A stretch of DNA of 64,000 nucleotides from an uncultured Gaiellaceae bacterium (GTDB lineage Bacteria > Actinomycetota > Thermoleophilia > Gaiellales > Gaiellaceae): assembly GCA_963732995.1 (NCBI GenBank), contig CAVTBS010000009.1:64618-128617 (forward strand). Reading direction: 5' to 3'. A model generated the notes under the pieces. It made no database searches and was not told the DNA's origin. It saw only the letters and a list, made by a program, of their open reading frames with translations. Within the stretch, counting starts at the first letter, position 1. The number at the start of each line of letters is the position of its first letter. Positions 9,447 through 47,065 of this stretch are shown here, piece by piece. Position numbers and translations under genes: made by a program.

Positions 9447-9488
9447 TCGAGCGAGTCTAGCGTCCGTCCCGGCGATCGACCGCCGCGA

Positions 9489-23222: not shown

Positions 23223-23315
23223 CGGAGCGGCCCCGGAGTCGAACCGAGCAAGCCGTGGGTTGCACGACCGGGCCGATTTTGAAGACCGGCTGGGCCACCG
23301 GGCCCGTGCCGCTCC
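23223..23315 (-). tRNA. selC: tRNA-Sec (anticodon UCA)
   Basis: Hand-folded. 8-bp acceptor GGAGCGGC/GCCGCTCC plus discriminator G. D-arm GGGCC-CGGT-GGCCC. Anticodon stem GCCGGT/ATCGGC with loop CTTCAAA. 6-bp long variable arm GTCGTG-CAACC-CACGGC. 5-bp T-stem CTCGG/CCGGG with loop TTCGACT. This is the 8/5 Sec architecture. CCA is not encoded. Confidence 0.9.
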
Positions 23316-25195: not shown

Positions 25196-25759
25196 GTGGC
25201 TCACCTCCGTCTCACCGACGTCGACGAGGCCACCGGACCGCTGAAGGACGAGTACGACGCGGCGATCGGGCGTGCCGGCAAGGTCTTCAACATCGTCAAG
25301 GCGATGAGCCCGAACCCGGACGTGCTCCACCGCTCGATGGAGCTCTACAAGGGGATCATGTTCGGGCCCTCGAAGCTCTCTCGCCAGGAGCGCGAACTGC
25401 TTGCGACGGTCGTCTCGCGCGAGAACGAGTGTCATTACTGAACGCGGTCGCATGCAGACGACCTCCGTGCCGAGGGCGCCGACGACGAACTGGTGGACCG
25501 GTGCGCCCACGACTACCGCACCGCCGTCCTGCCTGCGCCTGTGCGCGCGCTCTGCGACTACGCGGCCAAGCTCACGCATGTCCCGACCGCCGTCGGCGCG
25601 GCCGACGTGGAGGAGCTACGCGCGCACGGCTGGGACGACGAGGCGATCCACGACGCGATCCAGGTGATCGCCTACTTCAACTACATCAACCGGATCGCCG
25701 AGGCAGTCGGGATCGGCCCGGAGCCGGAGTGGGAGACAACAGAGCGGGAGGAGCGATGA
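25196..25759 (+). CDS. AhpD/carboxymuconolactone-decarboxylase-family peroxidase-related protein, predicted selenoprotein (UGA 25439-25441 read as Sec)
   Basis: Track ORFs 25196..25441 and 25493..25759 share one frame and are separated only by TGA. Read-through gives ...VSRENECHY-U-TRSHADDLRAEG..., the family C-x-x-C-x-x-x-H signature with U at the second Cys. GC3 bias continues across the gap. tRNA-Sec, selA and selB are nearby. Confidence 0.8.
25442..25468 (+). promoter_or_regulatory. candidate bacterial SECIS hairpin immediately 3' of the in-frame UGA
   Basis: ACG-c-GGUCG-CAUGCAGA-CGACC-uc-CGU. It has a 5-bp upper stem, a 3-bp lower stem with bulges, and an 8-nt apical loop containing G residues 13-20 nt from the UGA. 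Confidence 0.45.
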
Positions 25760-27569: not shown

Positions 27570-28637
27570 ATGGCCGAGATCGCGCACCCGTACGAGAGCG
27601 CCGCCGAGACGGCCGCCGCTCCGGCTGCGGCACCGCGCCGCAGGGTCTCCTTCTCGGAGCTCGTCGACGCCTGGGCGGTCCGTGAGGGAGGGGACGGCCG
27701 CGAGGAGCGCTACCAGGAGCTGCGCGCGGCGTTCGTCTCGGATCACGGCGAGATCACCGACAGCTACATCTGCGAGAGCGGGCCGATGGCGGTCGTGCTG
27801 ACGGCCGTGCGCCCGAAGCCGCTCGAGCGGAAGCTGTTCCGCTCCAAGGACCGGGTCGAGATGTACAGCGAGACCGAACGGCTCGTGCGGATGCACCCAG
27901 AGGTGGCCCAGGTGCTCCACCGGGCCGAGGTGCAGTACGTCTCGGTGCGGAACGCCCTGCGCGGGCTCAGCCAGCGGCTGCTCGTGAACTGGCTCTTCGT
28001 CTGGATGCGCGACCTGATGCTCGTCTCGATCCCGAACGTCGACGGCACGGTCGTCCCGCTCTCCGCGGAGGAGATCGAGGCGCAGGAGAAGGAGCTCGAC
28101 CGGATCGAGGCCCACTACCAGCAGGCGGCGGCGCGCGAGGCGCAGATCGTCTACCTCGGCGGGATGCTGATGGGCGTGCTCGCCCTCTGCGCGGTCACCG
28201 TTCCCGTCGGGATCCTGCTCGCGGCCAGCAGCGTCCCGGTCAACCTGACCACGTTCTTCGGCTGCCTGATCGCCGGCGCGCTCGGGGCGCTCGTCAGCGT
28301 CGTCACCCGCATGAGCGCCGACAAGTTCCACGTCCGCCACGAGGTCGGGCGCTCGTACGTGCAGCGCGTGGCGGCGTTCCGGCCGTTCATCGGCGGCGTC
28401 TTCGGCCTGCTCGTCTACTTCGCGCTCCAGGGCGGGGTGATCCGGCAGCTCGACGTGCCCGAGGACCCGCGCGACCGCTTCGCGTTCTTCCTCGTCCTCG
28501 CCTTCGCGGCCGGCTTCAGCGAGCGGCTGGTGAAGGAGGTGCTGCGCTCGACGAACGGAGACGACGCCGAGGCTAAGGCGCCGGAGCCGCCGAAGCCCGA
28601 CGCCGCAGCACCCGTGCCTCCCCAACCCGGCGGGTGA
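27570..28637 (+). CDS. hypothetical membrane protein (soluble N-domain plus about 4 C-terminal TM helices)
   Basis: High GC3. Start taken at MAEIAHPYE. TM segments include IVYLGGMLMGVLALCAVTVPVGILLAA and FFGCLIAGALGALVSVV. No family recognised. Confidence 0.6.
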   Translation: MAEIAHPYESAAETAAAPAAAPRRRVSFSELVDAWAVREGGDGREERYQELRAAFVSDHGEITDSYICESGPMAVVLTAVRPKPLERKLFRSKDRVEMYSETERLVRMHPEVAQVLHRAEVQYVSVRNALRGLSQRLLVNWLFVWMRDLMLVSIPNVDGTVVPLSAEEIEAQEKELDRIEAHYQQAAAREAQIVYLGGMLMGVLALCAVTVPVGILLAASSVPVNLTTFFGCLIAGALGALVSVVTRMSADKFHVRHEVGRSYVQRVAAFRPFIGGVFGLLVYFALQGGVIRQLDVPEDPRDRFAFFLVLAFAAGFSERLVKEVLRSTNGDDAEAKAPEPPKPDAAAPVPPQPGG

Positions 28638-30211
28638 CGCCGTCGGCGTCGAGGCGCTCCAGCAGGAGCTGAGCGTCCCGGCGGCCGCAGCCCGCGAGGT
28701 CGCGGAAGCGGGCGAGCGTGATCTGGCCGGCCGCCGCGCACTCCTCGAGCACGAGCGCCCGTGCCCGCTCGTAGGCCGACGCCGAGACCGCCCAGCCGTC
28801 GCCGAGCCGGACGAGCCTGCCCGCGCGCTCGAGGTAGCGGGCCAGCTCCGAATCCTCCGCCCTGGCGGCACCGGGCTCCGCCGCCGCCAGCGCCGCCGCC
28901 AGCTCCTCCGCCTCGGCGGCGCGGTCACCGAGGTCGCCGGTCGTGCCGGGCCGGTAGAGCAGTCGAGCCGCGCCGCTCGAAGGGAAGCCGCGCCAGGACC
29001 TCCTTCGCCCAGGGCTCGGTCGGCGCCGGCGTGCCCGGGTCGAGCGGGTCGGCTCGGTCGATCGCCTGCTCGAGCGCGGCCCGGAGCTCGGCCAGCCACT
29101 CGTCCGAGAAGCGCCACGCGCCGTCGACGAGCGCCGGTGCATGGACACGCGTCTCGCCGCGGCGCGCCTGCTCGAAGCGGGCCGGGTCGGAGTGCCGGAC
29201 GGGGACGGGGTCGAGCACGGTCCCACCGCCGACCGTCGTCTCGTCGCGGAGCACGACCCGGTCGCCGCGCGCGGCGACGACAGGCGCTGCGAGTCGCAGC
29301 TGGGCGAAGCCGCCCGCCCTGACGACGCGGGCGGGCACGGCGGCAGTGCCGTGGTGGACGTGGAGGCGCGCTCCCTCGGCGATCGGTGTCAGCTCCTCCA
29401 GCGTCACGTCCAGGCGGTAGCTCGGCCTGAAGGTTTCGGGGGCGACGAGCACGTCGCCGCGCCGCAGGTCGGTGCGGTCGACCCCCGGCAGCGCGAGCGC
29501 GACGCGCTGCCCCGGCTCCGCCCGCTCGACGGCCCGGTCGTGCACCTGGACGCTCCGGACTCGGACGTCGCGACCGGCGGGCTCGGCGCGAAGCACATCG
29601 CCCTCGCCGACGGTCCCGGACCAGAGCGTCCCGGTCGCGACCGTCCCGATCCCGCGCAGTGAGAAGACCCGGTCGACGTGGAGGCGCGCCGGCTCGGAGA
29701 GATAGTTGCTGTCAGCAACTAAGTCCGCAGCGCGCGTGAGCGCAGCACGGAGCTCGTCGAGCCCGACGCCGGTCTTCGCGCTCACCGGAACGGCCTCGGC
29801 CTCCGGGACGAGCTCCGCCGCCTCCTCGAGCGCCAGCGCGAGCGTCTCCTCGTCGACCGCATCGGACTTCGTCACCGCGACCACGCCGTGCTCGATCCCG
29901 AGCAGGCGGATGATCGCGAGGTGCTCGTGCGTCTGCGGCCGCGCGCCCTCGCCGGCATCGATCACGAGCAGGAAGAGGTCGATCCCCGTCGCCCCGGCGA
30001 CCATGTTGCGGACGAAGCGCTCGTGCCCCGGCACGTCGACCAGCGAGAGCCGCTGCCCGTCCGGCAGGTCGAGCGGGGCGTAGCCGAGGTCGATCGAGAT
30101 CCCGCGCCGCTGCTCCTCGGGGAGTCGGTCGGTGTCCTTCCCGGTCAGTGCCCGCACGAGCCACGTCTTGCCGTGGTCGATGTGCCCGGCGGTTCCTACC
30201 GTAAGCGGCAT
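28573..30211 (-). pseudogene. selB: selenocysteine-specific elongation factor SelB, frame-disrupted as assembled (1 extra nt near 28960-28980)
   Basis: [16 protein letters not shown]...DVPGHERF...TKSD GTPase domain and domains II-III lie in ORF 28925..30322. The winged-helix C-terminus (LLYRPGTTGDL...ITLARFRDLAGCGRRDAQLLLERLDADGVTRRVGE) lies in ORF 28573..29226. Total span is 3n+1 nt. Confidence 0.85.
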
Positions 30212-30363
30212 CTCGCGCCCCTGGCCGGCGCCGGCTCCCGCCGGGCGGAGCCCGGCTCCGCCGGTGCCTGACGCCGCTCGCGGCGCTCCGGCCGCAGGCC
30301 CGTACCGCCGTACTGTTCCCACGGCCTACGCACCGCGAGCGGCGCCCCAGGAACGCGAGACCG

Positions 30364-31638
30364 TCACGCCAATCTGACTCGAGCGACCGCCCGGGCGACC
30401 TCGTCGGCCTCGGCGTCGGTGAGGGTGCGGCAGTCGAGCAGCGTGCGGCCGTCGCGGACGACGGCGATCACCGGCGGGTCATGGGCGCGCAGCGGCGCCG
30501 CCAGCTCCTCGGCGACCGAGCAGGCGAAGCTCGGCAGCTCGGCGAGCGGGAGGGCGCCGCCGCCGACGCGGGCAACCGTCTCCTCGACGGCGCCGTCCGC
30601 CGCCCGCGCAAGGCGCTCCGCGCGGTCCCGGACGGCGTCGACCGGCTCGCGCAGCATCCGCAGCACCGGGATCTCGTCCGGCGAGTCGAGATAGAGGAGC
30701 AGCGTGCCCTCGAGCGCCGCGAGCGTCAGCTTGTCCGAGCGCAGGGCGCGATGGAGCGGGTGCCGGCGCAGCCGCTCGATCAGATCGGCGCGGCCGGCGA
30801 CGATGCCCGCCTGCGGGCCGCCGAGGAGCTTGTCGCCCGAGAAGCAGACGAGGTCGGCGCCCGCCGCGAGGGCGGCAGCAGGCGTCGGCTCGCCGTCGAC
30901 GTCGACGAGCGCGCCGGAGCCGAGGTCGTCGAGGAGCGGCAGCTCGTGGCGGCGCGCGACGGCCGCGAGCTCGTCGAGGCGCGGCTGCTCGGTGAAGCCG
31001 ACGACGCGGAAGTTCGACTGGTGGACGCGCAGGAGCAGCGCCGTGTCCGGCCCGACCGCGTGCTCGTAGTCGGCGGCGCGGGTCCGGTTCGTCGTCCCCA
31101 CCTCGACGAGCCGGGCTCCGGAGCGGACGAGCACGTCGGGGATCCGGAATCCGTCGCCGATCTCGATCAGCTCGCCGCGCGAGACGACGACCTCACGCCC
31201 CTCCGCGAGCGCGGCGAGCGCCAGCAGCATCGCCGCAGCGTTGTTGTTGACGACGATCGCATCCTGTGCGCCCGTGAGCCGGCGCAGCAACGGCGCCAGA
31301 TGGTCCTGGCGGGAGCCGCGTGAGCCCGAGGAGAGGTCGTACTCGAGGTTGGAGTAACCGCTCGTGTCGGCGATCCGTTCGAGCGCGGCCGCGGCGAGCG
31401 GCGCGCGGCCGAGGTTCGTGTGCACGAGCACGCCGGTCGCGTTCAGGACCCGGCGGAGCGCCGGCCGCCGTGCCGTGGCGAGCGCCTGCTCGAGCCGCAC
31501 CCGCAGGTCGCCGGGCTCGGCGCCCGCCCGGATCTCCTCGCGCGCCCGCTCGAGCACGTCCCGGGCGGCCGCGACCGCGAGCGGGTCGGCGGTGCCGCGA
31601 ACGAGCTCGTCGACGGAGGGAAGATCCTGCAATCTCAC
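30364..31638 (-). CDS. selA: L-seryl-tRNA(Sec) selenium transferase SelA
   Basis: LPSVDELV N-terminus, [46 protein letters not shown] and [13 protein letters not shown] (PLP Lys). GTG 31638 is preferred because ATG 31704 would overlap the divergent VanW gene. Confidence 0.92.
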
Positions 31639-31681
31639 GGAAAACGAGTGTAGTCCGGCCGGAGCCGCTACCTTGCCAATC

Positions 31682-33361
31682 GTGAGACGTGTGGGGGTGA
31701 TCACGGCGTCGGTGCTCGCGATCGCGGCCGTTCTGGCCGTCGCCGCGGTGGGTGCGCGCGACGCGTACTACTGGGACCGGCCGCTGCCCGGCGTCGAGCT
31801 GCGCGAGGCCGGCCTGCAGGAGCCCGTGCGCATCGTCGTCGGTGAGCGGGAGTACGACGTCCGGCCGGGCGAGGTCCTCAGCCTCGACAGCACGGCGACC
31901 GAGCAGGCGCTCTGGGACGCCGGCCGCACCAGCTTCACCGGCCGGATCCGGCAGCTCGTCGACCCGAGCCCGCCGAAGCTCGTCGTCGATCCGGTGCTCG
32001 AGACGCGGCCCGGGGCCGACCAGATCGCGGAGGAGATCTCCGCCTCGCTGCCGAAGCCGCGGCGGGCCCAGGTCGTTGCGCGTGACGGCTTCCGCGTGAT
32101 TCCGTCCCGCCCGGGTGACGCGATCGCCCCGACCCAGCTCGCCGACTCGCTCGCGCAGGCCTCGCTGACGGGCGTGCGGACGCTGCGCCCGGCGCTGACC
32201 CACGTCGATCCCGAGCTCACGACTGCCGCCGCCGAAGCCGCCGTCGACGAGGCGGAGGAACTGGTCGACGAGCCGGTGACGCTCGAGTTCAAGGGTGAGG
32301 ACGTCGGCGCGCTGGCTCCCGCGCGGCTCGTCAAGCTGCTCCGGTTCCGGCCCGCCGGCGAGCGCTTCCGCGTCTCCTTCCATCCCGAGCGCATGGCCAA
32401 GGCGGTCGAGCCGATGCTGAAGCCGTGGCGAGCCCGAGCCGTCAATGCCCGCTTCGTCGTCGACGGGAGGCAGGTGCGGATCCGGCCGTCGCGTCCGGGT
32501 CTCGCCGTCGACGGCCGGTGGGTCGCCGACTCCGTCGCGGCCGCCGCGGCCGCGCCGACGCATCGTGCCTCGCTGCGGCTGAAGCAGATCCGCGCCGACC
32601 TGACCACCCGCGAGGCCGAGCGCCTCGGGATCCGCGAGCGCATCTCCACCTTCACGACCGACATGGGCACGTCGTCGTCGAACCGGATCCACAACGTGCA
32701 GCTGATGGCGCAGTACATCGACGGCACGGTGATCAAGCCCGGCGACACGTTCTCGTTCAACGACCGCGTCGGTCCCCGGACGGTCGAGCGAGGCTTCCGC
32801 GAGGGTCAGATGATCATCGGCTCGCTCCTCCTGCCCTCGATCGGCGGCGGCGTTTGCCAGACCGCGACGACGCTCTTCAACAACGCCTTCGAGCTCGGGC
32901 TGCCGATCGTCGAGCGCCACAACCACAGCTTCTACATCTCGCACTACCCGATGGGCCGCGACGCCACCGTCTCGTGGGGCGGGCCGGACTTCGTCTTCAA
33001 GAACGACCTGAAGACCGGGATCCTGATCACGACGAGCTACACCAGCTCGACGCTCACGTTCTCGTTCTTCGGCACCGACCCGGGGCGGCGCATCGTCGCG
33101 ACGACGGGCGAGCGGTCGAACTGGCGCTCGCCGCAGACGACCTACGCGCTCGACCCGTACGCACCGCGCGGATCGGTGCGCACGGTCGCCGGCTCGAACC
33201 AGTCAGGCTTCGACGTCACCGTCACCCGCAAGGTCTTCGAGGACGGGAAGCTGCTGCGCCAGGACGCGACGACGAGCAACTACATCGCCGTCGGCCCGAC
33301 CGCGATCTACGGCCCGGGCCGCTCGATCCCCGGCCCGTACTTCGTCCTGCCGCGGGTCTAG
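31682..33361 (+). CDS. VanW family protein
   Basis: N-terminal TM. C-terminal motifs GTVIKPGDTFSFNDRVGPRTVERGF...GGGVCQTATTLFNA...ERHNHSFYISHYP. Start is GTG 31682. Confidence 0.88.
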   Translation: MRRVGVITASVLAIAAVLAVAAVGARDAYYWDRPLPGVELREAGLQEPVRIVVGEREYDVRPGEVLSLDSTATEQALWDAGRTSFTGRIRQLVDPSPPKLVVDPVLETRPGADQIAEEISASLPKPRRAQVVARDGFRVIPSRPGDAIAPTQLADSLAQASLTGVRTLRPALTHVDPELTTAAAEAAVDEAEELVDEPVTLEFKGEDVGALAPARLVKLLRFRPAGERFRVSFHPERMAKAVEPMLKPWRARAVNARFVVDGRQVRIRPSRPGLAVDGRWVADSVAAAAAAPTHRASLRLKQIRADLTTREAERLGIRERISTFTTDMGTSSSNRIHNVQLMAQYIDGTVIKPGDTFSFNDRVGPRTVERGFREGQMIIGSLLLPSIGGGVCQTATTLFNNAFELGLPIVERHNHSFYISHYPMGRDATVSWGGPDFVFKNDLKTGILITTSYTSSTLTFSFFGTDPGRRIVATTGERSNWRSPQTTYALDPYAPRGSVRTVAGSNQSGFDVTVTRKVFEDGKLLRQDATTSNYIAVGPTAIYGPGRSIPGPYFVLPRV

Positions 33362-33365
33362 TCCG

Positions 33366-34070
33366 TCACTGCGCGTCGGCCTTCTCCGGCGAGGCCGGAG
33401 ATTCCGCGTTCCGCTCGTCGTAGCTCTCGACGACGATCCGGACGGCCTCGGCTGGGTCGTCGGTGACGTGCAGGAGCTCGACGTCCTCGGGCGAGACCAT
33501 CCCGTCCGCGAGCAGTTCGCCGTCGACCCAGGCGAGCAGCTCCCGCCAGTAGTCGGAGTCGAAGAGGACGACGGGGAAGTCGAGCACCTTGCCGGTCTGG
33601 ATCAGCGTCAGCGCCTCGAACGCCTCGTCGAGCGTGCCGAAGCCGCCGGGGAAGATGACGAACCCCTCGGCCGCCTTCACGAACATCGTCTTGCGGGCGT
33701 AGAAGTGCTTGAACGTCATCGAGATGTCGCAGTACGGGTTGACGCCCTGCTCGTGGGGAAGCGTGATGTTGAAGCCGACCGAGAGCCCACCGCCTTCCTT
33801 GCAGCCGCGGTTCGCCGCCTCCATCACGCCCGGGCCGCCGCCGGTGACGACCGCGAAGTGCGCCTCGGCGAAGAGCTTCGCCGTCGCCCGCGCCTGCTCG
33901 TACGGGCGGCTGCTCTCCCCGACGCGGGCCGACCCGAAGATCGAGACGGCCGGCCTGTCGATCTCGAGCACCTTCTGGAAGCCGCCGAGGAACTCGGACG
34001 CGATCACCGCGACGTCGTTCTGGAGGTCGTCGTGCGTCCGCTCCAGCATCCGCCGCTCGTTCGAGGCCAC
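33366..34070 (-). CDS. LOG family (TIGR00730) nucleotide phosphoribohydrolase
   Basis: VSIFGSAR...VVTGGGPGVMEAANRG...PGGFGTLDE motifs. Confidence 0.9.
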   Translation of the reverse strand: MASNERRMLERTHDDLQNDVAVIASEFLGGFQKVLEIDRPAVSIFGSARVGESSRPYEQARATAKLFAEAHFAVVTGGGPGVMEAANRGCKEGGGLSVGFNITLPHEQGVNPYCDISMTFKHFYARKTMFVKAAEGFVIFPGGFGTLDEAFEALTLIQTGKVLDFPVVLFDSDYWRELLAWVDGELLADGMVSPEDVELLHVTDDPAEAVRIVVESYDERNAESPASPEKADAQ

Positions 34071-34074
34071 CCGC

Positions 34075-34911
34075 TTAGATGTCCCGTTCGACGAAGGTGC
34101 CGCTCATCCCCAGGGTCAGGAGCGCGGCGAGCACGATGTAGGAGACCCCGGTGATCCAGCGCTGCGCCGGCGTCACCTGGTAGTACGCCTCGCGTTCAGG
34201 GTCGGCCCGGTGCTGCCAGCGACGCCACGACTCGAGGCCGCCGAGGACGAGGATCAGGATCAGGATCGGGTTCGGCGCCAGGATCGTGAGCCCGACCAGG
34301 AGCAGCAGACCGACGATCCAGAGCGCGGGATGGATCGCGGCGACGATGCGGCCGCCGTCGAGCGGCGAGATCGGCGCCAGGTTGAAGAGGTTGAGGAAGA
34401 AGCCGGTGAAGGCGAGCGCGACCAGCAGGTCGGAGTCGAACCACTCGCCGAGGCCCCAGACGGCGGCCGCGCCGAGACCGCCGAGGATCGGTCCGGCGAT
34501 CGCGACCTTCGCCTCGTTCCACGCGTCGTCGGGGAGCTGCTTGAGCGTGATCAGGGCGCCGAGGAAGGGGATGAACATCGGCGCGGACACCGGCAGCCCC
34601 TGGTGCTTCGCCTCGGCGACGTGGCCCAGCTCGTGGATCAGGATCAGGAGGACGAAGCCGATTGCGAACTGCCAGCCCCAGAAGAGCGCGTAGGCGGCGA
34701 TCGAGACGAGCATCGAGCCGGCGACCGTGAAGAGCTTGAACTTGAAGATCGCCGCGAAGACGAACTTCAGCTTCCAGATCAGGAAGCCGACGGCGGCGAT
34801 CGGCGCCCAGAGCTTGCGCAGGACGTCGCCCACGGTCGTCGGACGCTTGATCGGGGAGTAGTCGTGCGGCGGCTCCTCGGCCTCGCGCGGCGCGTACGGG
34901 TCGTAACTCAC
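34075..34911 (-). CDS. site-2 protease family (M50) membrane metalloprotease
   Basis: Polytopic membrane protein with HELGH and NLFNLAPISPLDGG motifs. Confidence 0.85.
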   Translation of the reverse strand: MSYDPYAPREAEEPPHDYSPIKRPTTVGDVLRKLWAPIAAVGFLIWKLKFVFAAIFKFKLFTVAGSMLVSIAAYALFWGWQFAIGFVLLILIHELGHVAEAKHQGLPVSAPMFIPFLGALITLKQLPDDAWNEAKVAIAGPILGGLGAAAVWGLGEWFDSDLLVALAFTGFFLNLFNLAPISPLDGGRIVAAIHPALWIVGLLLLVGLTILAPNPILILILVLGGLESWRRWQHRADPEREAYYQVTPAQRWITGVSYIVLAALLTLGMSGTFVERDI

Positions 34912-34968
34912 GCGCTCAGAGTACTCATCGCCCTTCCGGTCGCCTCCCCCGGCCGTGCACCCGCCTTC

Positions 34969-34997
34969 TTGAGCGACGCCTGAGTGTTCCTTGAGCG
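34969..34997 (+). promoter_or_regulatory. three direct heptamer repeats at 11-bp spacing (TTGAGCG, CTGAGTG, TTGAGCG), candidate SARP operator
   Basis: Repeat starts are at 34969, 34980 and 34991. They resemble the TCGAGCG-type heptamers bound by SARP activators. They lie 44-72 nt upstream of ATG 35041. Confidence 0.4.
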
Positions 34998-35040
34998 GCG
35001 GGCGTCACCGTGAGCGCATCACTCGGAGAGGAGAGGAGAG

Positions 35041-35223
35041 ATGACCGGACAGTCCAGGATTCGAAGATCGCTCTCGATTGCCGGGGCGACCTGCTTCACC
35101 GCCCTCGCCCTGTTGGCGGTGGGGACTCCGGGGGCCGCCGACGCCTCCGGTGACCGCGGCAACTGCGATCTATACGGGTGGAGCGGCTTCCTGGCCGGAC
35201 ACTGGGGCGGCGACTGTCGGTGA
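35041..35223 (+). CDS. small secreted peptide precursor (60 aa; predicted 25-aa mature peptide with two Cys)
   Basis: GGAGAGGAGAGGAGAG is the strongest SD-like stretch I saw, directly before the ATG. Signal peptide MTGQSRIRRSLSIAGATCFTALALLAVGTPGAADA. Mature SGDRGNCDLYGWSGFLAGHWGGDCR. GC3 is mostly high. The last 54 nt overlap the convergent regulator. Confidence 0.5.
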   Translation: MTGQSRIRRSLSIAGATCFTALALLAVGTPGAADASGDRGNCDLYGWSGFLAGHWGGDCR

Positions 35224-37914
35224 GTTGAGCACCTCCTCGAGGACGTCGTCGGGCGCCGCCTCCCCGGCCGCGAACGCCTCGCCGTAGCCGGCGTCGCCGA
35301 GCGCGGCCCGCAGGCGCCCGGCGAGGTCGTCGAGGAACTCCTGCTCCTGCCAGTCGATCGAGGCGCCCGTCTGCTGCCGGATCCCGGATGCCGCACCGAG
35401 GAGCCGTGTCGCGAGCGCCAGCTCCCCGGCGTGCTCGTGGGCAGGCGCGAGCCACACGCAGCAGGACGCGAGCCGGTCGCGGAAGCCGAGTCGTATGTAG
35501 AGCTCCATGCTCTCTCGCAGCTGCGCGCGGCCGGTGTCGTAGCGGCGGAGGCGCAGGTTCATGTCGCCGAGCCCCAGCAGCGCGCCGGCGAGGTACTCGC
35601 GGTGGTCGGCGCGACGAGCGGATTCGGCGCTCTCCTCGTAGATCGCAGCACCGCCCTCGTAGTCCTCGAGCTCGGCAGCAACCACGCCGAGATTGGAGAG
35701 CGCGAGTGCGAGGTGAGCGTCGTTCCCGAGTGTCCGGGCGAGGTCGGCGCTCTGCTCCCACCACTCGCGCGAGCCCTCCCGGTTGCGGCGGCTGTACTCG
35801 ATGCACCCGAGCAGGATCAGCAGGCGGTAGCGCTCGTCCTCGTCGACCGCTCCTGCGAGTAGCGGCAGGGCGGCCTCGGCTCGCGGGCCCGCGAGGTCGA
35901 AGTCACCCTGGCGCCATTCGAGGGTCGCGAGCTTCCGCAGAACCTGGGCACGCAGCAGCGGCTCGATGTCAGCGGTGGAGGCACTCTCGAGCGTCCCCTC
36001 GAGCCACGCACGGCCCTGCGCGAGATAGCCGCGGACGAGCCAGAAGTGCGCGAGGGCGGCGGCGAGCCGGAAGCGAAGCTCCGTCAGTTCGGCCGCACCG
36101 GCGAACGCGAGGGCCGCTCTGAAGTTGTCGTGCTCGCGCTCGAATGTCGCGTAGGCCTCGTCGACCGCCTCGCCGGGCAAAGCGTCGACGAGCTCGTCCG
36201 CAAGCTCGAGGAAGTGCTCGGCGTGTCGACGCCGCACTTCGTCGGCATCGGCCCGTTCGAGCAGCCTCTCGACCGCGTACTCGCGGATCGTCTGCAGCAT
36301 CCGGAAGCGGCCGTCATCGGCGCGTCGGAGCAGGCTCGCCTCGGCGAGACCGGTCAGCCCCGCGGCTCCGTCGGGTTCGCACACGGCCGCGACGCTGGGG
36401 CCGGTGAAGCCGCCGGCGAACGCGCCGAGCTCGGCAAAGAGTTGCTGTTCGGCCGGAGCGAGCAGGTCGTGGCTCCAGCTGATCGCCGAACGGAGCGTTC
36501 GCTGCCGTTCCGGGAGATCGCGTGCGCCTCGCGACGCGAGCTCGAGCCCGTCGTCGAGCGATTCGAGCAGCTCGGCCGACGTCAGATCGACAGTGCGGGC
36601 GGCCACGAGCTCGATTGCGAGTGGCAGTCCGTCGAGGCGCTCACAGATCTCCGTGACGAGCGCCGCCGAGGGCGGACGGCGTCCGGTGGCAGCGGCGCGT
36701 GTGAGGAAGAGCTCCTCCGCCTCCCCGGCGGGAAGGGGCGGCAGTTGCAGCTCGTGCTCGCCGTACACGTGGAGGCGCGCGCGGCTCGTCGTCAGGACGC
36801 GCAAACGAGGTGCCGTCTGCAGCAGCTCGCCGACGAGCGGGGCTGCGTCGAGCAGCTGCTCGAAGTTGTCCAGGAGCAGCAGCAGCTCGCGGCCGTGGAG
36901 CTCATCGTCCAGCGTCTCCTCGGCGAGCCCGAGCGCCTGAGCGATCGCGGACCGGACGAGTGCGGGATCGACGAGTGCTGCCAGTCCGACGAACCAGACG
37001 CCGTCGGTGAACACCTCGGCGAGCTCGTGCGCGGCTCGGAGCGCGACGCGCGTCTTGCCTACGCCGCCTGGCCCCGTCAGCGTGATCAGCCGACCCTCGC
37101 CGCGGAGCAGCCCGGTGACCGAGTCGACCTCCTCGCGCCGGCCGATGAACGCCGTCGGGGGCGCTGGCAGGTGGCGGCGCTCGCGCAACGACTCCGGCTC
37201 GACATCGAGCGCGGCGTCCTGACGGAGAATCGCGCCCTGGAGCGCACGGAGTTCGGCGCCCGGCTCCAGCCCGAGCTCGTCGAGTGACTCTCGGATTGCG
37301 GTGTACGCGTCGAGCGCCTCGGCCTGCCGGCCGGCGCGGTAGAGCCCGAGCATGAGCAGACCGCGTAGCCGCTCACGCAACGGGTGTTCCCGCACGAGCC
37401 GCTCGAGCTCCGCCAGGTCGACCGCGCGGCCGAGCGCAAGCGCGGAGTCTGCGCGATCCTCGAGCGCGGCCACGCGAAGCTCCTCGAGCCGTTCTCGTTC
37501 GGTCGCCGTTGCGAGGCTGTCGTCGAGCCCGGCGAGAGCCGGACCTCGCCAGAGCGCAAGCCCCGCTTCGAGCGAGGCCAACGCGTCCTCGTGGCGGCCC
37601 GATCCACGCTGTGAACGCGCGCTTTCGACGAGCTGCTCGAACTCGTCCGCGTCGACCTGCTCGGGGAGCAGCCGGTAGCCGTCGCCCTCCCGTTCGACTG
37701 CCAGCCCGGCCTTGCGCAGCTCCGAGACGTACACCTGCAGCGCGTGTGACGCGCTCGCGGGTGGCCGGTCGGCCCAGACCGCGTCCTGCAGCTGTTCGGC
37801 CGACACCGCCGAGCCGCGCGCGAGGAGCAGCGAGATCAGGAGCGCCCGCGGCTTCGCCCCGCCGCTGAACGGCTGCCCGCGAACCTCGAGCGTTCCGAGT
37901 ATCCGGAACTCCAC
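35170..37914 (-). CDS. AfsR/SARP-family regulator (OmpR-type winged helix, BTAD, NB-ARC ATPase, TPR)
   Basis: MEFRILGTLEVRG...ALQVYVSELRK..., a BTAD region, the P-loop GPGGVGKTRVA and a long TPR-like C-terminus. AGGAGGAGG SD precedes the GTG start. Confidence 0.9.
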   Translation of the reverse strand: MEFRILGTLEVRGQPFSGGAKPRALLISLLLARGSAVSAEQLQDAVWADRPPASASHALQVYVSELRKAGLAVEREGDGYRLLPEQVDADEFEQLVESARSQRGSGRHEDALASLEAGLALWRGPALAGLDDSLATATERERLEELRVAALEDRADSALALGRAVDLAELERLVREHPLRERLRGLLMLGLYRAGRQAEALDAYTAIRESLDELGLEPGAELRALQGAILRQDAALDVEPESLRERRHLPAPPTAFIGRREEVDSVTGLLRGEGRLITLTGPGGVGKTRVALRAAHELAEVFTDGVWFVGLAALVDPALVRSAIAQALGLAEETLDDELHGRELLLLLDNFEQLLDAAPLVGELLQTAPRLRVLTTSRARLHVYGEHELQLPPLPAGEAEELFLTRAAATGRRPPSAALVTEICERLDGLPLAIELVAARTVDLTSAELLESLDDGLELASRGARDLPERQRTLRSAISWSHDLLAPAEQQLFAELGAFAGGFTGPSVAAVCEPDGAAGLTGLAEASLLRRADDGRFRMLQTIREYAVERLLERADADEVRRRHAEHFLELADELVDALPGEAVDEAYATFEREHDNFRAALAFAGAAELTELRFRLAAALAHFWLVRGYLAQGRAWLEGTLESASTADIEPLLRAQVLRKLATLEWRQGDFDLAGPRAEAALPLLAGAVDEDERYRLLILLGCIEYSRRNREGSREWWEQSADLARTLGNDAHLALALSNLGVVAAELEDYEGGAAIYEESAESARRADHREYLAGALLGLGDMNLRLRRYDTGRAQLRESMELYIRLGFRDRLASCCVWLAPAHEHAGELALATRLLGAASGIRQQTGASIDWQEQEFLDDLAGRLRAALGDAGYGEAFAAGEAAPDDVLEEVLNSPTVAAPVSGQEAAPPV

Positions 37915-37980
37915 GACCCCTCCTCCTGAGCGTTCGTTCAGCCCATCTTGCGCCTTCCGCGACGCGGTTTCACGTAGAGC

Positions 37981-38619
37981 TCAGGAGCCCTGCCCGATCC
38001 ATTCTTCGCCGCCCTCGTAGACCTCCTTCTTCCAGAGCGGCACCGTCCCCTTGAGCGTGTCGATCGCTTCCTTGCACGCGGCGAGCGCGGCAGCCCGGTG
38101 CGGCGAGGAGACGGCGATCGCGACGCTCGGCTCGCCGATCTCGACCCTGCCGACGCGATGATGGATCGCGACCGCGAGCAGCTCGTGGCGCTCGGACAGC
38201 TCGCGCGCCAGGTCGGCCATGGACTGCTCCGCCATCCCCTCGTAGGCCTCGTACTCGAGGTAGAGGACGGCCCGGTCGCGCGAGCGGCTGCGAACCGTGC
38301 CGAGGAACGTCGCGACGGCGCCGGCCTCGTCGCTCTGGACTTCGCGGACGACCGCGTCGAGCGAGAGCGGCTCCGCGGTCACGCGGAAGTCGCCGCCGGA
38401 CACGGGCGGGATCAGCGCCACCTCGTCGCCCTCCGCGAGGGCCGTGGCGCTGTTCGCGTAGCGCTTGTTGACCGCGTAGAGGAGCCCGTCGGGCTCGTCG
38501 CCGAGAGCGAGTGCAGACCAGACGTCGCCGAGCGTGGCGCCGTCGGGAAGCGCGAGAGTGCGGGCGCCGGTGCCGGCGCGCTCACGCAGGCCGGCGAAGA
38601 GGCGGATGCTCACCTGCAT
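37981..38619 (-). CDS. molybdopterin synthase MoaD-MoaE fusion protein
   Basis: The N-terminal MoaD-like domain ends in ...ALIPPVSGG, followed directly by the MoaE domain (...ATFLGTVR...LEYEAY...VPLWKKE). Confidence 0.88.
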
Positions 38620-38683
38620 CGAGGGGAGCGTAGCCGCGCGTCCCCGGGTTGCCTCGCGGCACGTGTCATGTTACGTATGCCGC

Positions 38684-39343
38684 ATGCCGGTCTCAGCGCC
38701 CGCCCGGACGAACCTGAACGACCGCGTCTACGAGACCCTGAAGACGCGGCTCGTGCGCCGCGAGCTCGGCCCGGGCGAGAAGCTGAGCCTGCACGAGCTG
38801 GCAGCGACGCTCGGCGTCTCGCGCAGCCCGGTCCACCACGCGCTGACGCGGCTCGTCGCCGAAGGGCTGCTGACCGTGAAGTCGCGGCGCGGCTACTACG
38901 TGAACGCGCTGACCGAGGCCGCGATCGGCGACGGCTACGACGTCCGGCTCGCCCTCGAGCTGCAGGCGGCGGAAGGCGCCGTCGGCCGCGTCTCTCCGGA
39001 CGACCTGCGCCGGTTCCGCGAGCTGCACGGGGCGACCGCCGAGGCGGTCTCGCACACCGAGTGGGACTCCGCGAACGCGGCGTTCCACGAGTTCCAGGTC
39101 GACCTCGCCCACAACGCGCTCCTCTCGCGCTTCTATCGCGACCTTTCGATCAACCTGATGATGCAGGTGATCCGCGGCGGCAAGCTCGAGGGCGGGTCGT
39201 ACCTCCCGGAGGAGCACGGCGCGATCGTCGACGCGTACGAGGCCGCCGATCTCGAGGCGGCGCGCGCGGCGATCCGGGCGCACATCGCCACCGGGAGGCG
39301 GATCGCGCTCGACGCGATCGAGGCGGCGCACGGCGTCCTCTAG
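38684..39343 (+). CDS. GntR family (FadR/FCD-type) transcriptional regulator
   Basis: Winged HTH ([30 protein letters not shown]) plus a helical FCD-like C-domain. Start is ATG 38684. Confidence 0.88.
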
Positions 39344-39369
39344 TCACCTTCACCCGTAGCATCCGCTCC

Positions 39370-40914
<1,545 letters not shown>

Positions 40915-41020
40915 TCACCGACCAGCGCACCGGAACTTCACCTCCCCGCAGCCCATCGGCGGGCGCCGCGGACTGACACTCGGCTCGCAAGCACGTCGAG
41001 ACGAAACCAATGGGGAGAGG

Positions 41021-42431
41021 ATGCAAGTGCGGAACATCAGCTTCGGGTCGCGCCTGTTCGCCGGGACGGTGGTGACCGTCGCGCTGGCGGTCGTCGTGGG
41101 CGCGGCAGTCGCGGGCGACGCGGTGATCGGACGCTCGAGCGTCGAGAAGGCGATCAAGGGCGGGAAGGCGAAGAACGTGATCCTGCTGATCGGCGACGGG
41201 ATGGGCGACTCGGAGATCACGCTCGCCCGGAACTACACCGTCGGCGCGGCAGGCCGCCTCGCGCTGGACGAGCTTGCCGCTCACGGGCCAGATGACGACG
41301 TACTCCGTGCGCGAGGACAACCCGTCGAAGCCGGACTACACATCCGAGTCGGCGTCGACCGCGACCGCGTGGTCGACCGGCGTCAAGACCTCGGACGGCC
41401 GCATCTCGACGACTCCGGGCACCGACCAGGACCTCGAGACGATCCTGGAGCTCGCGCAGGAGCGCGGGCTGACGACCGGCAACGTCACGACCTCCGAGCT
41501 GACCGATGCGACCCCGGCCGCGCCGATGTCGCACGTGCGGCTGCGCGGCTGCCAGGGGCCGCAGAACATGGGCACGCTGCGCCGCAGGACAAGAAGTCGG
41601 CCGGCGGCCCTGGCTCGATCGCGGAGCAGTCGGTCGACAAGGGCGTCGACGTGCTGCTCGGCGGCGGCAAAGGCCGCTACGACCAGCTGATCGACGGCGG
41701 CCCAGACGCGGGCAAGACGGTGATCCAGTCCGCCGATGCGCCAGGGCTACCAGGTCGTCACCAGACCGCGCTGAGCTCCTGGCGGCGCAACCCGGGCAGA
41801 AGCTGCTCGGCCTCTTCCACTCGGGGAACCTCAGCGTCGAGTGGACCGGCCTGCCTCGCTGCGAGGCCGGCCAGCGGGCCGCAGCGATGCGTCGAGAACC
41901 AGCGGCCGGCGAACGAGCCGAGCCTCGACGAGATGACGGCGAGGGCGATCGAGTTCCTGACTGGCAAGCCAGCAAGAGGAACCGAGGAAGGGCTTCTTCC
42001 TGCAGGTGGAGAGCGCCTCGATCGACAAGCGCGACCACGTCTCGCAGCCGTGCGAGCAGATCGGTGAGACGGTCAACTTCGACCGGGCCGTGCGGGTGGC
42101 GCTCGACTTCGCGGCGAGGAATCGAAGGACACGCTCGTGATCGTCACCGGCGACCACGCGCACACGAGCCAGATCGTGGAGGCGGACGCGACGGTCGCCG
42201 GCTTCGGCAGCCTGCTCACCACCGACGAGGGCGAGGTCCTGCAGGTCAGCTACGGCACCGGCGTCGCGCCGGCGACGCAGGAGCACACCGGCTCGCAGAT
42301 CCGGGTCGCGGCGAAGGGGCCGCAAGGCGGCGAACGTGGTCGGACTGATCGACCAGACCGACCTCTTCCGGATCATGGCGCGGGCGATCGGATCCGACGA
42401 GGGCGGCATCGTCGGGGGCGGCGACGACTGA
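41021..42431 (+). pseudogene. phoA: alkaline phosphatase PhoA-like gene carrying about 8 single-nt frame disruptions
   Basis: Signal peptide and [16 protein letters not shown]. Segments then alternate frames: [11 protein letters not shown]...[12 protein letters not shown]..., [15 protein letters not shown]..., [29 protein letters not shown]..., [34 protein letters not shown]..., [18 protein letters not shown]... and AANVVGLIDQTDLFRIM...GGGDD-stop. Confidence 0.85.
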
Positions 42432-42479
42432 GCCGTCAGCCGCGGCGAGGCTCCGGCGCGCGTGGGGGCGCGCCGGAGC

Positions 42480-43266
42480 TCACGCCGATGCGCCCGAGTA
42501 GCGGCGGAGGCCGAAGTGCCACCACCAGCGCGTGAACGACGAAGAGCACCGCGGCGAAGCCGACGGCGATGCCGACGGTCGACCACTCGAGCCGTGATGT
42601 GATCGCCTCCGCGGGCACGGTGATCGCGAAGGCGAGCGGGAAGATGAAGGTGACGCCGAAACGCAGCCAGCCCGGGAAGATCGACGTCGGCCAGCGGCCG
42701 GCCTGGTAGATGCCGTCGAAGAGCTCGATGATCTCCCAGACGTTGACGATCCAGAACGCCAGCGTCGCGATCACGAGCCAGAAGCAGTAGATCGTGACCG
42801 CGCCGAGCAGCAACAGGCCGAGGAACAGGAGCACGTTGTCGATCCCGACGCTCGTCTCCAGCCCGTTGATCCCGTACGCCAGCACGGCGGCGCCCGCGAT
42901 CACGTCGACCGCGCGCCAGATCTGGACGTTGCGAATGCTGACCAGCACCTGCGAGTCCTCCGGCTTCGTCAGGGCGAAGTCGAGCCTGCCGTCGCGCACG
43001 TCCTCCATCAGCCGCTGCATGTTCGGCTGGATCGTCGTCCGGATCACGCCGCCGAGCAGGATCTGGATCCCGAGCACGATCATCAGCTCGGACTCGTCCC
43101 AGCCGTTCAGCTCAGTGGTCTGCGAGTAGACGAGCGTCAGGACGACGAGCGCGACGCCGACCGAGACCGCCGACTGCAGCAGCTGGATGAAGAAGTTCGC
43201 GCGGTACTGGAGCTCGTTCAGCGAGCCGACCTTGAAGAAGAGCCAGGCGAGGCGGGCGATTCGCAC
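42480..43266 (-). pseudogene. ABC-2 type transporter permease, frame-disrupted near the 3' end as assembled (extra nt about 42528)
   Basis: Polytopic permease. The listed frame runs on to 42436. The alternate frame gives ...WWWHFGLRRYSGASA-stop at 42480, matching the paralogue's end ...VVWRFAVRRYSAVGN. Confidence 0.75.
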
Positions 43267-44105
43267 TAGTTCCCCACCGCGGAGTAGCGCCGGACCGCGA
43301 ACCGCCAGACGACGAGGAAGAGCCCGGTCAGGGCGACGATCCAGAGCATCTGGATCCCGAGCCCTTCCAGCAGCTCCCGGTTCGTCAGGTCGCCGACGAG
43401 CGTCTCGATCGGGAAGTAGAACGACCATTTGAACGGGAGCACGTTGGCGACGTCCTCGGCCCAGTCGGGCATCAGCGGCAGCGGCACGAGCCGGCCGGAG
43501 AGGAGCAGCTCCAGCCCGATCGCGAGCTCGAAGAGCGCGCTCACACGCGTCGTCCAGAACGTCACCATCCCTAGCGCGGACAGGAACATCGTCCGGATCA
43601 GGTACGCGCCCCAGATCGCGACGCAGAACGCGGCGATCTCGGCCGCGCGGATGTCGATCGTGGGGTCGAAGGCGATCCAGAGCACGGCCGCGATCGGCAG
43701 CCAGAGGATGATCGTGACCACCTTCCAGCCGGCGAAGCCCGCGATGTCCTCGTGGATCGGGTGCAGCGGGCGCAGGAGCGCGGCCGAGAGCTCGCCCTCG
43801 CGGATCCGCCACTCCCAGCCGTAGGGCGTGAAGACGATGTTCATGTTCCGAACGAGCGTCCAGACGATGTAGTACGCGGCGAACTGGCCGGTCGTGATCC
43901 CCTGCACGGAGCCGCCCTGCTGCTCGGAGATGGTCGTCCAGACGACGAGGTAGACGATCGGCTCCGCCAGCATCCCGACCAGCCACATGTAGGTGGCCAC
44001 GCGGTACTGGAAGTTCGACTGGATCTGGACTCGCGCGCGGGTCAGGTAGTAGTCGAGGTAGGAGCGGAAGCGCCCCTCCTCGACAGCGCCCGCGTCGGTG
44101 CTCAC
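43266..44105 (-). CDS. ABC-2 type transporter permease
   Basis: Polytopic protein paralogous to the downstream permease. GTG 44105 overlaps the ATPase stop (GTGA). Confidence 0.85.
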   Translation of the reverse strand: MSTDAGAVEEGRFRSYLDYYLTRARVQIQSNFQYRVATYMWLVGMLAEPIVYLVVWTTISEQQGGSVQGITTGQFAAYYIVWTLVRNMNIVFTPYGWEWRIREGELSAALLRPLHPIHEDIAGFAGWKVVTIILWLPIAAVLWIAFDPTIDIRAAEIAAFCVAIWGAYLIRTMFLSALGMVTFWTTRVSALFELAIGLELLLSGRLVPLPLMPDWAEDVANVLPFKWSFYFPIETLVGDLTNRELLEGLGIQMLWIVALTGLFLVVWRFAVRRYSAVGN

Positions 44106-45085
44106 TCGGGCCGCTCCTGCGCGAAGACGAGCTCGATCACATCCTCGATCGGCGGGTCCTCGACGGTCAGGTCGGCAATGTCGCGCTCCGCGAGCAGCCG
44201 TGCCGTCACGCGAGCGGTCTCTGCCTTCGGGACCCGAAGCTTCACGCGCCCGTCCCCGCGCTCGAGAACGTCGCCGTAGCCCGAGAGATCGACCGAGGGA
44301 TCCTCGAGCTCGACGGAGAGGGTCTTGAAAGCCTCGAACTGGTCGCCGATCCGCGCGAGCGGGCCGTCGAAGAGGATCTTGCCGTGGTGGATGACGACGA
44401 CGCGCTTGCAGAGCGCCTCGACGTCGGCCATGTAGTGGCTCGTCAGGAGGACGGTCGCGTCGTAGCGGCGGTTGTACTCCGCCACGAACGAGCGGATCCG
44501 CTTCTGCATCGTCACGTCGAGCCCGATCGTCGGCTCGTCGAGGAAGAGCACCTGCGGCCGGTGCAGCAGCGAGCCGACCACCTCGACCTTCATCCGCTCG
44601 CCGAGCGAGAGGTTCCGCACCGGCTTGCGGACGAGGTCGCCGACGTCGAGCAACTCGATCAGCTCGTCGCGCAGTGCCGTGAAGTCCGCGCGCGGGATCC
44701 GGTAGATCGCCCGGTTCAGCTCGTACGAGTCGAGCGCGGGCAGGTCCCACTGGAGCTGGTTGCGGTTCCCCATCACGAGCGTGATCCGGCTGAGGAAGTC
44801 GCGCTCGCGCTTCGACGGGACGTGGCCGAGGACGCGGGCCTCGCCCGAGGTGGGGTAGAGGAGCCCGGAGAGCATCTTCAGCGAGGTCGTCTTGCCGGCG
44901 CCGTTCGGCCCGAGGAAGCCGACGATCTCGCCCTGTCCGACCTCGAAGGTGATCTCGTCGACCGCGCGCACCTCACGGTGCTTGCGGCGGACGAGGCTGC
45001 GCATCGCCGCGCGGAGCCCCGCGTCGCGCTCGGGGACGAGGAAGGTCTTGTTCAGATCGTCGACTCGGACTGCGGGCTCGGCCAC
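44102..45085 (-). CDS. ABC transporter ATP-binding protein
   Basis: Walker A GPNGAGKTT, signature LSLGERMKV and Walker B LFLDEPT. Confidence 0.93.
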   Translation of the reverse strand: MAEPAVRVDDLNKTFLVPERDAGLRAAMRSLVRRKHREVRAVDEITFEVGQGEIVGFLGPNGAGKTTSLKMLSGLLYPTSGEARVLGHVPSKRERDFLSRITLVMGNRNQLQWDLPALDSYELNRAIYRIPRADFTALRDELIELLDVGDLVRKPVRNLSLGERMKVEVVGSLLHRPQVLFLDEPTIGLDVTMQKRIRSFVAEYNRRYDATVLLTSHYMADVEALCKRVVVIHHGKILFDGPLARIGDQFEAFKTLSVELEDPSVDLSGYGDVLERGDGRVKLRVPKAETARVTARLLAERDIADLTVEDPPIEDVIELVFAQERPE

Positions 45086-45109
45086 GCCCAGAACCTAGAT
45101 GATGGATCG

Positions 45110-46118
45110 GTGCGCATCCTCCTCGTCTCCCAGATGTATCCCTCGGCCGCGGCGCCCGATTTCGGGGTCTTCGTCCAGGGGCTGGAGCGGGCGCTGGCTG
45201 CGCGCGGGCACGCGATCGAGCGGGTCGTGCTCGACCGGCGCGGCGGCGGCAAGCTGCGCCACGCGCGACTCGCCGCCCGCGCCGTCCGCGCTGCGCGGCG
45301 CTTCCGCCCAGATGTCGTCTACGCGCACTTCCTCTTCCCGACCGGCCTCGCCGGGCTGCTCGCGGCTCGCGCCTCGCGGTCGCCGCTCGTCGTCACCGCG
45401 CACGGCCAGGACGTCGCCAACCTGACCGAGTACCCGTTCGTCCGCTCGCCGGCGCGGCGCGTCGTCGGCGGGGCGGCGGCGGTGGTCGCCGTCTCCGACT
45501 GGCTGCGCGAACGGCTCGTCGCCGCGATCCCCGCCGCGGCGGCCAAGACCGAGGTCGTCGACTGCGGCGTCGACCTGGAGCGGTTCCGGCTGCTCGACCG
45601 TGCCCCCGGCCCCAGCCCGGCGTTCGTCTGCGTCGGCTCGCTGATCGAGCGGAAGAACGTCGTCCGGCTCGCAGGCGCGTTCGGCCGGCTCGGCGAGGGC
45701 ACGCTGACGTTCGTCGGCGACGGCCCGCTTCGGCCGCAGCTCGAAGGCCGGCCGGGCGTCACGGTCACCGGCTACCTCCCGCACGACGCCGTCCCGCTCC
45801 ACATCGCCGCGGCCGACGTCCTCTGTCAGCCGAGCCTCGCCGAGCCCTTCGGCCAGGCGGCGCTCGAGGCGCTGGCGTGTGGCCGCAGCTGTGGTCGCGA
45901 CACGGGTCGGAGGTCCGCCGGAGTTCGTCCCGGCGGGAGCCGGGGTGCTCGTCGACCCGCTCGACGAGGAGGCGCTCGCGGCTGCGCTCCGTGAGGCGGC
46001 CGCGCTGCCGGTGCCCAACCCCGCCGCACGCGCGGCGGCCGAGCTGCACGACGTCAGGCTGCAGGCGGAACGGGTGGAGGCGATTCTCGAGCGAGCCGTT
46101 CGAGATCGGCGAGCCTGA
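45110..46118 (+). pseudogene. GT4-family glycosyltransferase, frame-disrupted as assembled (extra nt about 45884)
   Basis: VRILLVSQMYPS... N-domain. ...EPFGQAALEALACG then continues one frame over as AAVVATRVGGPPEFVPAGAGVLVDP (track ORF 45879..46118). Confidence 0.75.
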
Positions 46119-46290
46119 TCTCGACGAGCGGCCGCACCGCCTCCTCGATCCCGGCTTCGCGCGCCAGCTCGAGCGCCTGCTCGTAGCTCTCGCGCGCCTT
46201 CTCGGGCGCGACGCCCTGCTTCAGCCGGTTGTCGCCCGTGACCAGCAGGCGCTGAATCTTGGCGCGGGTCTCATCGCCGGGAGGGGTCAT
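46054..46290 (-). CDS. small hypothetical protein (78 aa)
   Basis: Listed ORF with high GC3 and helical character (KARESYEQALELAREAGIEEA). Its 3' end overlaps the glycosyltransferase tail. Confidence 0.45.
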   Translation of the reverse strand: MTPPGDETRAKIQRLLVTGDNRLKQGVAPEKARESYEQALELAREAGIEEAVRPLVEIRLADLERLARESPPPVPPAA

Positions 46291-46329
46291 ACGCGTAGCC
46301 TAACGAGGCACGATTCCGTTGTTTCCAGA

Positions 46330-46701
46330 ATGCCGCAGCCCGTTCGAGTCCTGATCGCCGACGACCATCGCCTCTTCGCCGAGGCGCTCGAAGCCGTGCT
46401 CGCAACGGAGGAGCGGATCGAGGTCGTCGGCCGGGCCGCCGACGGGGAGGAGGCCGTCGCGCTCGCCCGCAGCCTGCAACCCGACGTCGTCGCGCTCGAC
46501 ATCAGCATGCCCGTGATGGACGGCTTCGAGGCGGCGGCGGCGCTGGAGCTGCTCGACCGGCCGCCGGCCGTGCTGATGCTGACCGGCTCGAACGCGCCGG
46601 AGGACGTCGACCGGGCGCGCCGAGTCGGCGCGAGGGGTTACATCACCAAGGACGCGATCGCTGCCAGCCTCGTCGAGGCAATCCTCGCCGCAGCGCGTTA
46701 G
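46330..46701 (+). CDS. stand-alone response regulator receiver (CheY-like) protein
   Basis: VRVLIADDHRLF...DVVALDISMPVMDG...MLTG...ITKD. No output domain. Start is ATG 46330. Confidence 0.85.
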   Translation: MPQPVRVLIADDHRLFAEALEAVLATEERIEVVGRAADGEEAVALARSLQPDVVALDISMPVMDGFEAAAALELLDRPPAVLMLTGSNAPEDVDRARRVGARGYITKDAIAASLVEAILAAAR

Positions 46702-46730
46702 TCGCCCGCGCGTTCGCTACCCTTCCGGCC

Positions 46731-46952
46731 GTGCTTGCCGTCGCAGCAGTCTTCCAGGTGCTGGTCTCCGTGGCGCTCCTCGCGCTCATCCTCATGCACT
46801 CCGGCCGTGACGCCGGCCTCGGCGGCATGGGCTTCACGCCCGCCTCGCAGGGCGGCACCCACATCGTCGAGCGGAACCTGACGCGGCTGACCGTCGTCGT
46901 CGCGACGGTGTTCTTCCTCAACAGCGTCATCCTGTACCGCCTCCTCGCCTAG
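46731..46952 (+). CDS. secG: preprotein translocase subunit SecG
   Basis: 73 aa with two TM segments and central ...HSGRDAGLGGMG..., typical of SecG. Confidence 0.85.
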   Translation: MLAVAAVFQVLVSVALLALILMHSGRDAGLGGMGFTPASQGGTHIVERNLTRLTVVVATVFFLNSVILYRLLA

Positions 46953-46981
46953 CGCGGGCCGCGGCTACACTGCACCTCCCC

Positions 46982-47065
<84 letters not shown>

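Follow-up and report, generated by a model that had tools for sequence, protein, structure and literature searches.

In an uncultured Gaiellaceae bacterium, selB lies in two reading frames, as if divided by one base too many. The gene sits in a 64,000-nucleotide stretch of contig CAVTBS010000009.1 (GenBank assembly GCA_963732995.1; hereafter the window), and the question it raises is whether the organism has lost the end of SelB or whether the deposited sequence is at fault. A preliminary description had left open the choice between a selenocysteine (Sec) system caught in decay and an assembly error. Near-identical strains, the error load of the assembly and the constraint acting on the gene all speak for the error, and the split is very probably a consensus artefact of an error-rich metagenome assembly rather than a mutation of the organism; the Sec decay is not borne out.

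selB is encoded on the minus strand and spans 1639 nt (28573-30211), a length of 3n+1. The first frame opens with the ATG at 30211, runs to ...LARLPFERRGS and ends in ...LARLPFERRGSTALPARHDRRPR at a stop codon (28925-28927) placed exactly 13 codons past RRG. The protein resumes in the +1 frame as LLYRPGTTGDL...VLRRRASAAPAP, up to a stop at 28573-28575, and a stretch of this frame reads ...LLYRPGTTGDLGDRAAEAEEL...ITLARFRDLAGCGRRDAQLLLERLDADGVTRRVGEARVLRRRASAAPAP (also given as LLYRPGTTGDLGDRAAEAEEL...RFRDLAGCGRRDAQLLLERLDADGVTRRVGEARVLRRRASAAPAP). The single extra nucleotide, the stop 13 codons after RRG and the resumption of the C-terminus in the +1 frame had all been described before, and hold: the alignments place exactly one surplus base in the gene. 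It aligns as plus-strand G 28962 against same-genus relatives, and as plus-strand C 28964 against two strains at least 99% identical (GCAGT[C]GAGCC). At this site, where the sequence is not a homopolymer, the window reads GCAGTCGAGCC, and the two nearest assemblies, ERZ25039591 and ERZ25039565, both read GCAGT-GAGCC.

Both pieces belong to SelB. The first comprises an EF-Tu-like GTPase domain and, after it, domains II and III (Pfam GTP_EFTU 3e-31, GTP_EFTU_D2 1e-12 and Beta-barrel_SelB 1e-13), and its residues 4-336 match solved SelB structures (phmmer against the PDB: 4zu9 4e-70, 5lzb 4e-66). The second, in the +1 frame, carries a winged-helix extension that is predicted to bind the SECIS hairpin and that, in all relatives, follows the N-terminal part without interruption; its last winged helix aligns to residues 564-606 of E. 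coli SelB. The break had been placed between the EF-Tu-like part and the winged-helix domains, which needs correction. Domains I-III finish near residue 337-340 and the break falls at codon 416 of 545, about 78 residues further on, inside the C-terminal winged-helix region and before the last winged helix. In its GTPase, domains II and III and C-terminal winged helix, the protein resembles the bacterial SelB of E. coli (5lzb) and Aquifex aeolicus (4zu9), and as in other bacterial SelB systems a selA-selB operon lies near tRNA-Sec and a UGA-containing gene. The intact SelB of the genus is, however, about 70 residues shorter than that of E. coli (540-547 versus 614 aa), with about 205 residues after domain III instead of about 270, in which Pfam detects one winged-helix model. 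Table 1 gives the positions of these features, together with those of the private indels discussed below.

Table 1. Components of the Sec system in the window and private indels of the three near-identical assemblies (window coordinates).
Feature	Position	Strand	Gene or region	Basis
selB 5' part, frame A, codons 1-416: GTPase, domains II and III, ~78 residues of the C-terminal region	28964..30211	-	selB	Pfam, PDB matches
Single frame-shifting surplus base	28962..28964	-	selB	Alignments; no counterpart in 11 same-genus relatives or 2 assemblies at least 99% identical
selB 3' part, frame B (+1): C-terminal winged-helix region, predicted SECIS-binding last winged helix, stop	28573..28961	-	selB	Pfam SelB-wing_3, E 2e-14; E. 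coli alignment; dN/dS 0.135 vs G005
selA (L-seryl-tRNA(Sec) selenium transferase), intact, directly upstream of selB	30364..31704	-	selA	Pfam SelA 5e-128, positions 1-366 of 367
tRNA-Sec, anticodon UCA	23223..23315	-	selC	ARAGORN; Rfam RF01852, 55.6 bits vs gathering score 47
AhpD-like (CMD family) putative selenoprotein gene, in-frame TGA 25439-25441, motif ...ENECHY-U-TRSH	25196..25759	+	AhpD-like gene	Sequence
Window, private lack of 2 nt	19260		Gene for 230-aa protein	vs sister assemblies
Window, private extra base	25872		Cupin gene	vs sister assemblies
Window, private extra base	28964		selB	vs sister assemblies
Window, private indel	39344		Intergenic	vs sister assemblies
Window, private extra base	42538		ABC-2 permease tail	vs sister assemblies
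Window, private extra base	45887		Glycosyltransferase	vs sister assemblies
Window, private extra bases, 19 sites	40920-42328 (1.4 kb)		phoA	vs ERZ25039591
ERZ25039565, private extra base	29482		selB	Sister-assembly alignment
ERZ25039565, private extra base	32776		VanW, split	Sister-assembly alignment
ERZ25039565, private extra base	36701		SARP regulator, split	Sister-assembly alignment
ERZ25039591, private extra base	33043		VanW	Sister-assembly alignment

The surplus base is found in this assembly only. Comparison with selB of close relatives had been proposed as a check, and none carries the base: in all 11 same-genus relatives (ten aligned together and an eleventh, G008, added later) the site lies in one continuous frame, ...RRGS(M/K/L)LYRPG.... 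A protein search returned the window's own truncated SelB of 428 aa together with an intact one of 545 aa (P0002), which reads ...RRGSLLYRPGTTGDL... (...RRGSLLYRPG...) and differs from codons 1-416 of the window gene by two residues, both in the N-terminal part; over the same codons, the window is 100% identical to P0001. P0002 is encoded by the nearest strain, on contig_54250 of the ENA assembly ERZ25039591, which aligns with window positions 18575-40211 (21.6 kb) at 99.58% identity, with 84 mismatches and 6 indel sites. A second ENA assembly, ERZ25039565, aligns through its contig_22160 with positions 28683-47065 at 99.1-99.6% identity and also has no surplus base at 28964. Its selB is broken elsewhere, by a private extra G at about codon 244, between ALALPG and VERTDL. 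The window and these two sister assemblies represent different strains, with 0.4-0.9% divergence and a real substitution pattern. The 84 substitutions that separate the window from ERZ25039591 comprise 58 synonymous, 19 nonsynonymous and 7 intergenic changes, so that 58 of the 77 genic ones are synonymous, and 56 of the 77 fall at third codon positions; the two are real strains under purifying selection.

A check of other frame breaks in the contig had been proposed as well, and private 1-nt insertions do abound in conserved genes of both the window and the genome bin. None of the six indel sites that separate the window from ERZ25039591 has a length of 3n, and the sister assemblies carry private extra bases of their own, in other genes (Table 1). 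Within one population, the broken conserved genes differ among the three assemblies, which fits random consensus error and not shared biology. The load was estimated from 131 ORFs of the relative G017 (intact, coding-like and 200 aa or longer), drawn from 460 kb of its sequence and each with an orthologue in the bin. Frame breaks affected 28 of them in the bin; the total was 39 over 165 kb of aligned coding sequence, five of them in a single gene. In the reverse control, the bin's intact ORFs compared with G017 gave 10 breaks in 160 kb, which is an upper bound on the noise of the method. Conserved genes unrelated to selB thus hold more private frame-breaking indels in the same assembly than the control would account for. 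The excess is about one break per 5-6 kb, from which about 0.3 artefactual breaks would be expected in a gene of 1.64 kb.

Two scans of the window for further breaks, one based on ORFs and one on tiled alignments, were both noisy, and several of their candidates were set aside. The candidate at 34070 falls in the intergenic sequence that separates the M50 peptidase gene from the LOG gene, and positions 9472 and 18639 lie upstream of the purB and rpsF starts. The gene for alkaline phosphatase, phoA, is intact in ERZ25039591 (462 aa, on a contig 99.4% identical) and missing from ERZ25039565; in the window, an HMM search finds it scattered over several frames. The region concerned (40920-42540) is a strain-variable insert, probably with low or mixed coverage in the sample.

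The pattern has a precedent in long-read sequencing. The consensus of long-read assemblies carries indels that become frameshifts at gene calling (PMC9262707), and in long-read metagenome assemblies such errors have been measured with the IDEEL test and corrected with proovframe (PMC9262707; bioRxiv 10.1101/2021.08.23.457338). As in those cases, private single-base indels break conserved genes genome-wide, here at about one per 5 kb, they are missing from other assemblies of the same population, and marker-based completeness is lowered. The bin comprises 2.48 Mb in 11 contigs with a marker-gene completeness of 62.6%, and so low a value despite so few contigs fits broken marker genes. From this contiguity and from the error pattern, we infer that the assembly is a long-read one. 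By contrast with the long-read indel errors of the literature, in which homopolymers are stressed, the errors found here are mostly insertions outside homopolymers, several of which hold both alleles of a SNP.

These paired alleles point to a cause. The two sisters differ at 42538 (G in one, A in the other), where the window reads GA, and again at 45887 (A and C), where it reads CA. At 25872, ERZ25039591 has C, the relatives G and the window GC. The same arrangement occurs in a sister assembly at 33043, where the window and ERZ25039565 have C, the relatives G and ERZ25039591 CG. In selB itself (28964), T in the sisters (a TCA serine codon on the coding strand) stands against C in the relatives (TCG), and the window has TC. 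Surplus bases thus tend to coincide with synonymous SNPs between strains, with both alleles present in tandem, which suggests that reads of co-existing strains were merged into one consensus; such a consensus would also account for the predominance of insertions and for their position outside homopolymers. For selB, reads of co-existing strains would have differed at the synonymous Ser site, with TCA as in the nearest strains or TCG as in the relatives, and the consensus would have kept both alleles in tandem as TCGA, a one-base insertion that splits the gene in a long-read-style metagenome assembly. Tandem alleles at strain SNPs may be a general mark of mixed-strain consensus, and we found no description of this signature in the literature on frameshift indels in long-read assemblies.

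The constraint on selB was compared on either side of the break. Against G005, the upstream part has a dN/dS of 0.11 and the downstream part one of 0.135; between intact relatives, values range from 0.14 to 0.23. The downstream part is as constrained as the upstream one, and a real break could only have arisen extremely recently.

The other components of the Sec system in the window are likewise intact (Table 1). selA was also called intact in both sister assemblies. The AhpD-like gene would be a client of the Sec machinery, judging from its in-frame TGA; this codon and the next ~40 nt are conserved in all seven relatives aligned. The nucleotides that follow the UGA (25442-25480, gcagacgacctccgtgc.gagggcgc) are nearly invariant among eight genomes whose overall identity is 79-88%, as expected for a putative SECIS element, and in a single-sequence fold the region was no more stable than shuffled sequences (z -0.09). 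Near the 3' end of the same gene, position 25738 had been another candidate break. It is a 1-nt difference from all more distant relatives, within the last few codons, and since it is shared with the 99.6% identical sister contig, it is not an error of this assembly but probably a genuine, lineage-specific alteration of the C-terminal tail of the AhpD-like protein.

The remaining component, selD, was not found in the 62.6%-complete bin. In the genus, it is present in 52 of 57 genomes, among them 16 of the 16 of high quality, and the five bins that lack it are 62-72% complete: the present one (G000), G003, G054, and G005 and G015, which represent the closest species. At least 40 kb around selD in G010 and G017 have no orthologous match in the bin, and this gap fits unbinned sequence better than a clean deletion. 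A follow-up synteny search located the nearest matching block at C3:150.5-153.4 kb of the bin, beyond which the sequence has no counterpart in four relatives. For a stretch of about 18 kb (G000:C3:132000-150600), four relatives, the two closest among them, have almost no orthologous sequence. This stretch contains proC and genes for proline dehydrogenase, an aldolase and a GAF histidine kinase with its response regulator; it may be a variable island, or else be mis-binned or chimeric.

How do these observations weigh on the possible explanations of the split? The surplus base does stand in the deposited sequence, and real substitutions set the strain apart from the nearest relatives sequenced, so private mutations exist. 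A strain-private mutation is therefore conceivable, and the difference in strain between the window and the sister assemblies counts to that extent against an artefact. Homopolymers are the classic place of long-read indels, and that the selB site is not one counts against it too. A genuine frameshift would cut SelB after residue 416 and 13 out-of-frame residues, with the loss of the SECIS-binding winged helices; the UGA of the AhpD-like gene would no longer be recoded, and the Sec system would stand at the first step of decay. The missing selD, taken alone, would fit such a decay, and its absence from G005 and G015, the two closest relatives at species level, points the same way. These two nevertheless retain an intact and conserved selB, selD is missing only from incomplete bins, and in the present bin it is missing along with its surroundings. 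The base itself is absent from both nearest strains, the downstream part of selB shows no relaxation of constraint, and selA, tRNA-Sec, the UGA and the conserved element 3' of it are all intact. Moreover, dozens of equally private 1-nt insertions lie in unrelated conserved genes of the same assembly, and not all of them can be mutations that the organism tolerates, since the genic substitutions between the strains are for the most part synonymous. For these reasons, a frameshift that is genuine and very recent is very unlikely.

That the two frames serve a purpose is more improbable still, and hardly worth entertaining. Both pieces are open and conserved, which is the one point in favour of a programmed +1 ribosomal frameshift leading to full-length SelB, or of two separately made pieces that cooperate. 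Programmed frameshift sites are conserved among relatives, but this arrangement occurs in none of the 11 relatives and in neither of the two near-identical strains, in all of which the gene is continuous at the site, and it is unique to one assembly. In addition, the only upstream start of the second frame is a GTG at 29226, deep within the first one. Programmed frameshifting and a two-piece SelB were rejected on this lack of conservation. An artefact of the consensus, by contrast, is supported by near-identical strains without the base, by the private insertions of the assembly and by the unrelaxed constraint downstream of the break.

Such an error rate has consequences for the use of these genomes. 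Where a consensus error breaks the frame about once in every 5 kb of coding DNA, as in this bin, any interpretation in terms of pseudogenes, split genes or decaying pathways is suspect until reads or sister assemblies have been checked, and the same caution applies to several sister bins of the genus that are of long-read style. If tandem strain-SNP alleles prove to be general, they would form a recognisable signature of mixed-strain consensus that polishing tools could use. Were the base real after all, a soil Gaiellaceae lineage would have just lost the SECIS-binding end of its SelB, and perhaps selD, with the UGA still in the AhpD-like gene, an outcome that we consider highly improbable. 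The same slender chance attaches to what it would offer, namely a snapshot, within a single species, of the first step in the loss of the selenocysteine trait.

On the evidence gathered here, there is no sign of decay of the selenocysteine system. If the split is an assembly error, the living population would have an ordinary SelB of 545 residues, in which the GTPase and domains II and III are followed by a short C-terminus of winged-helix type for binding the SECIS hairpin. Together with the adjacent selA and the nearby tRNA-Sec, it would decode the UGA of the AhpD-like gene as selenocysteine. In a survey of this trait, selD is not scorable from the bin, and selA, selB, selC and the putative AhpD-like client of this Gaiellaceae lineage should be scored as intact.
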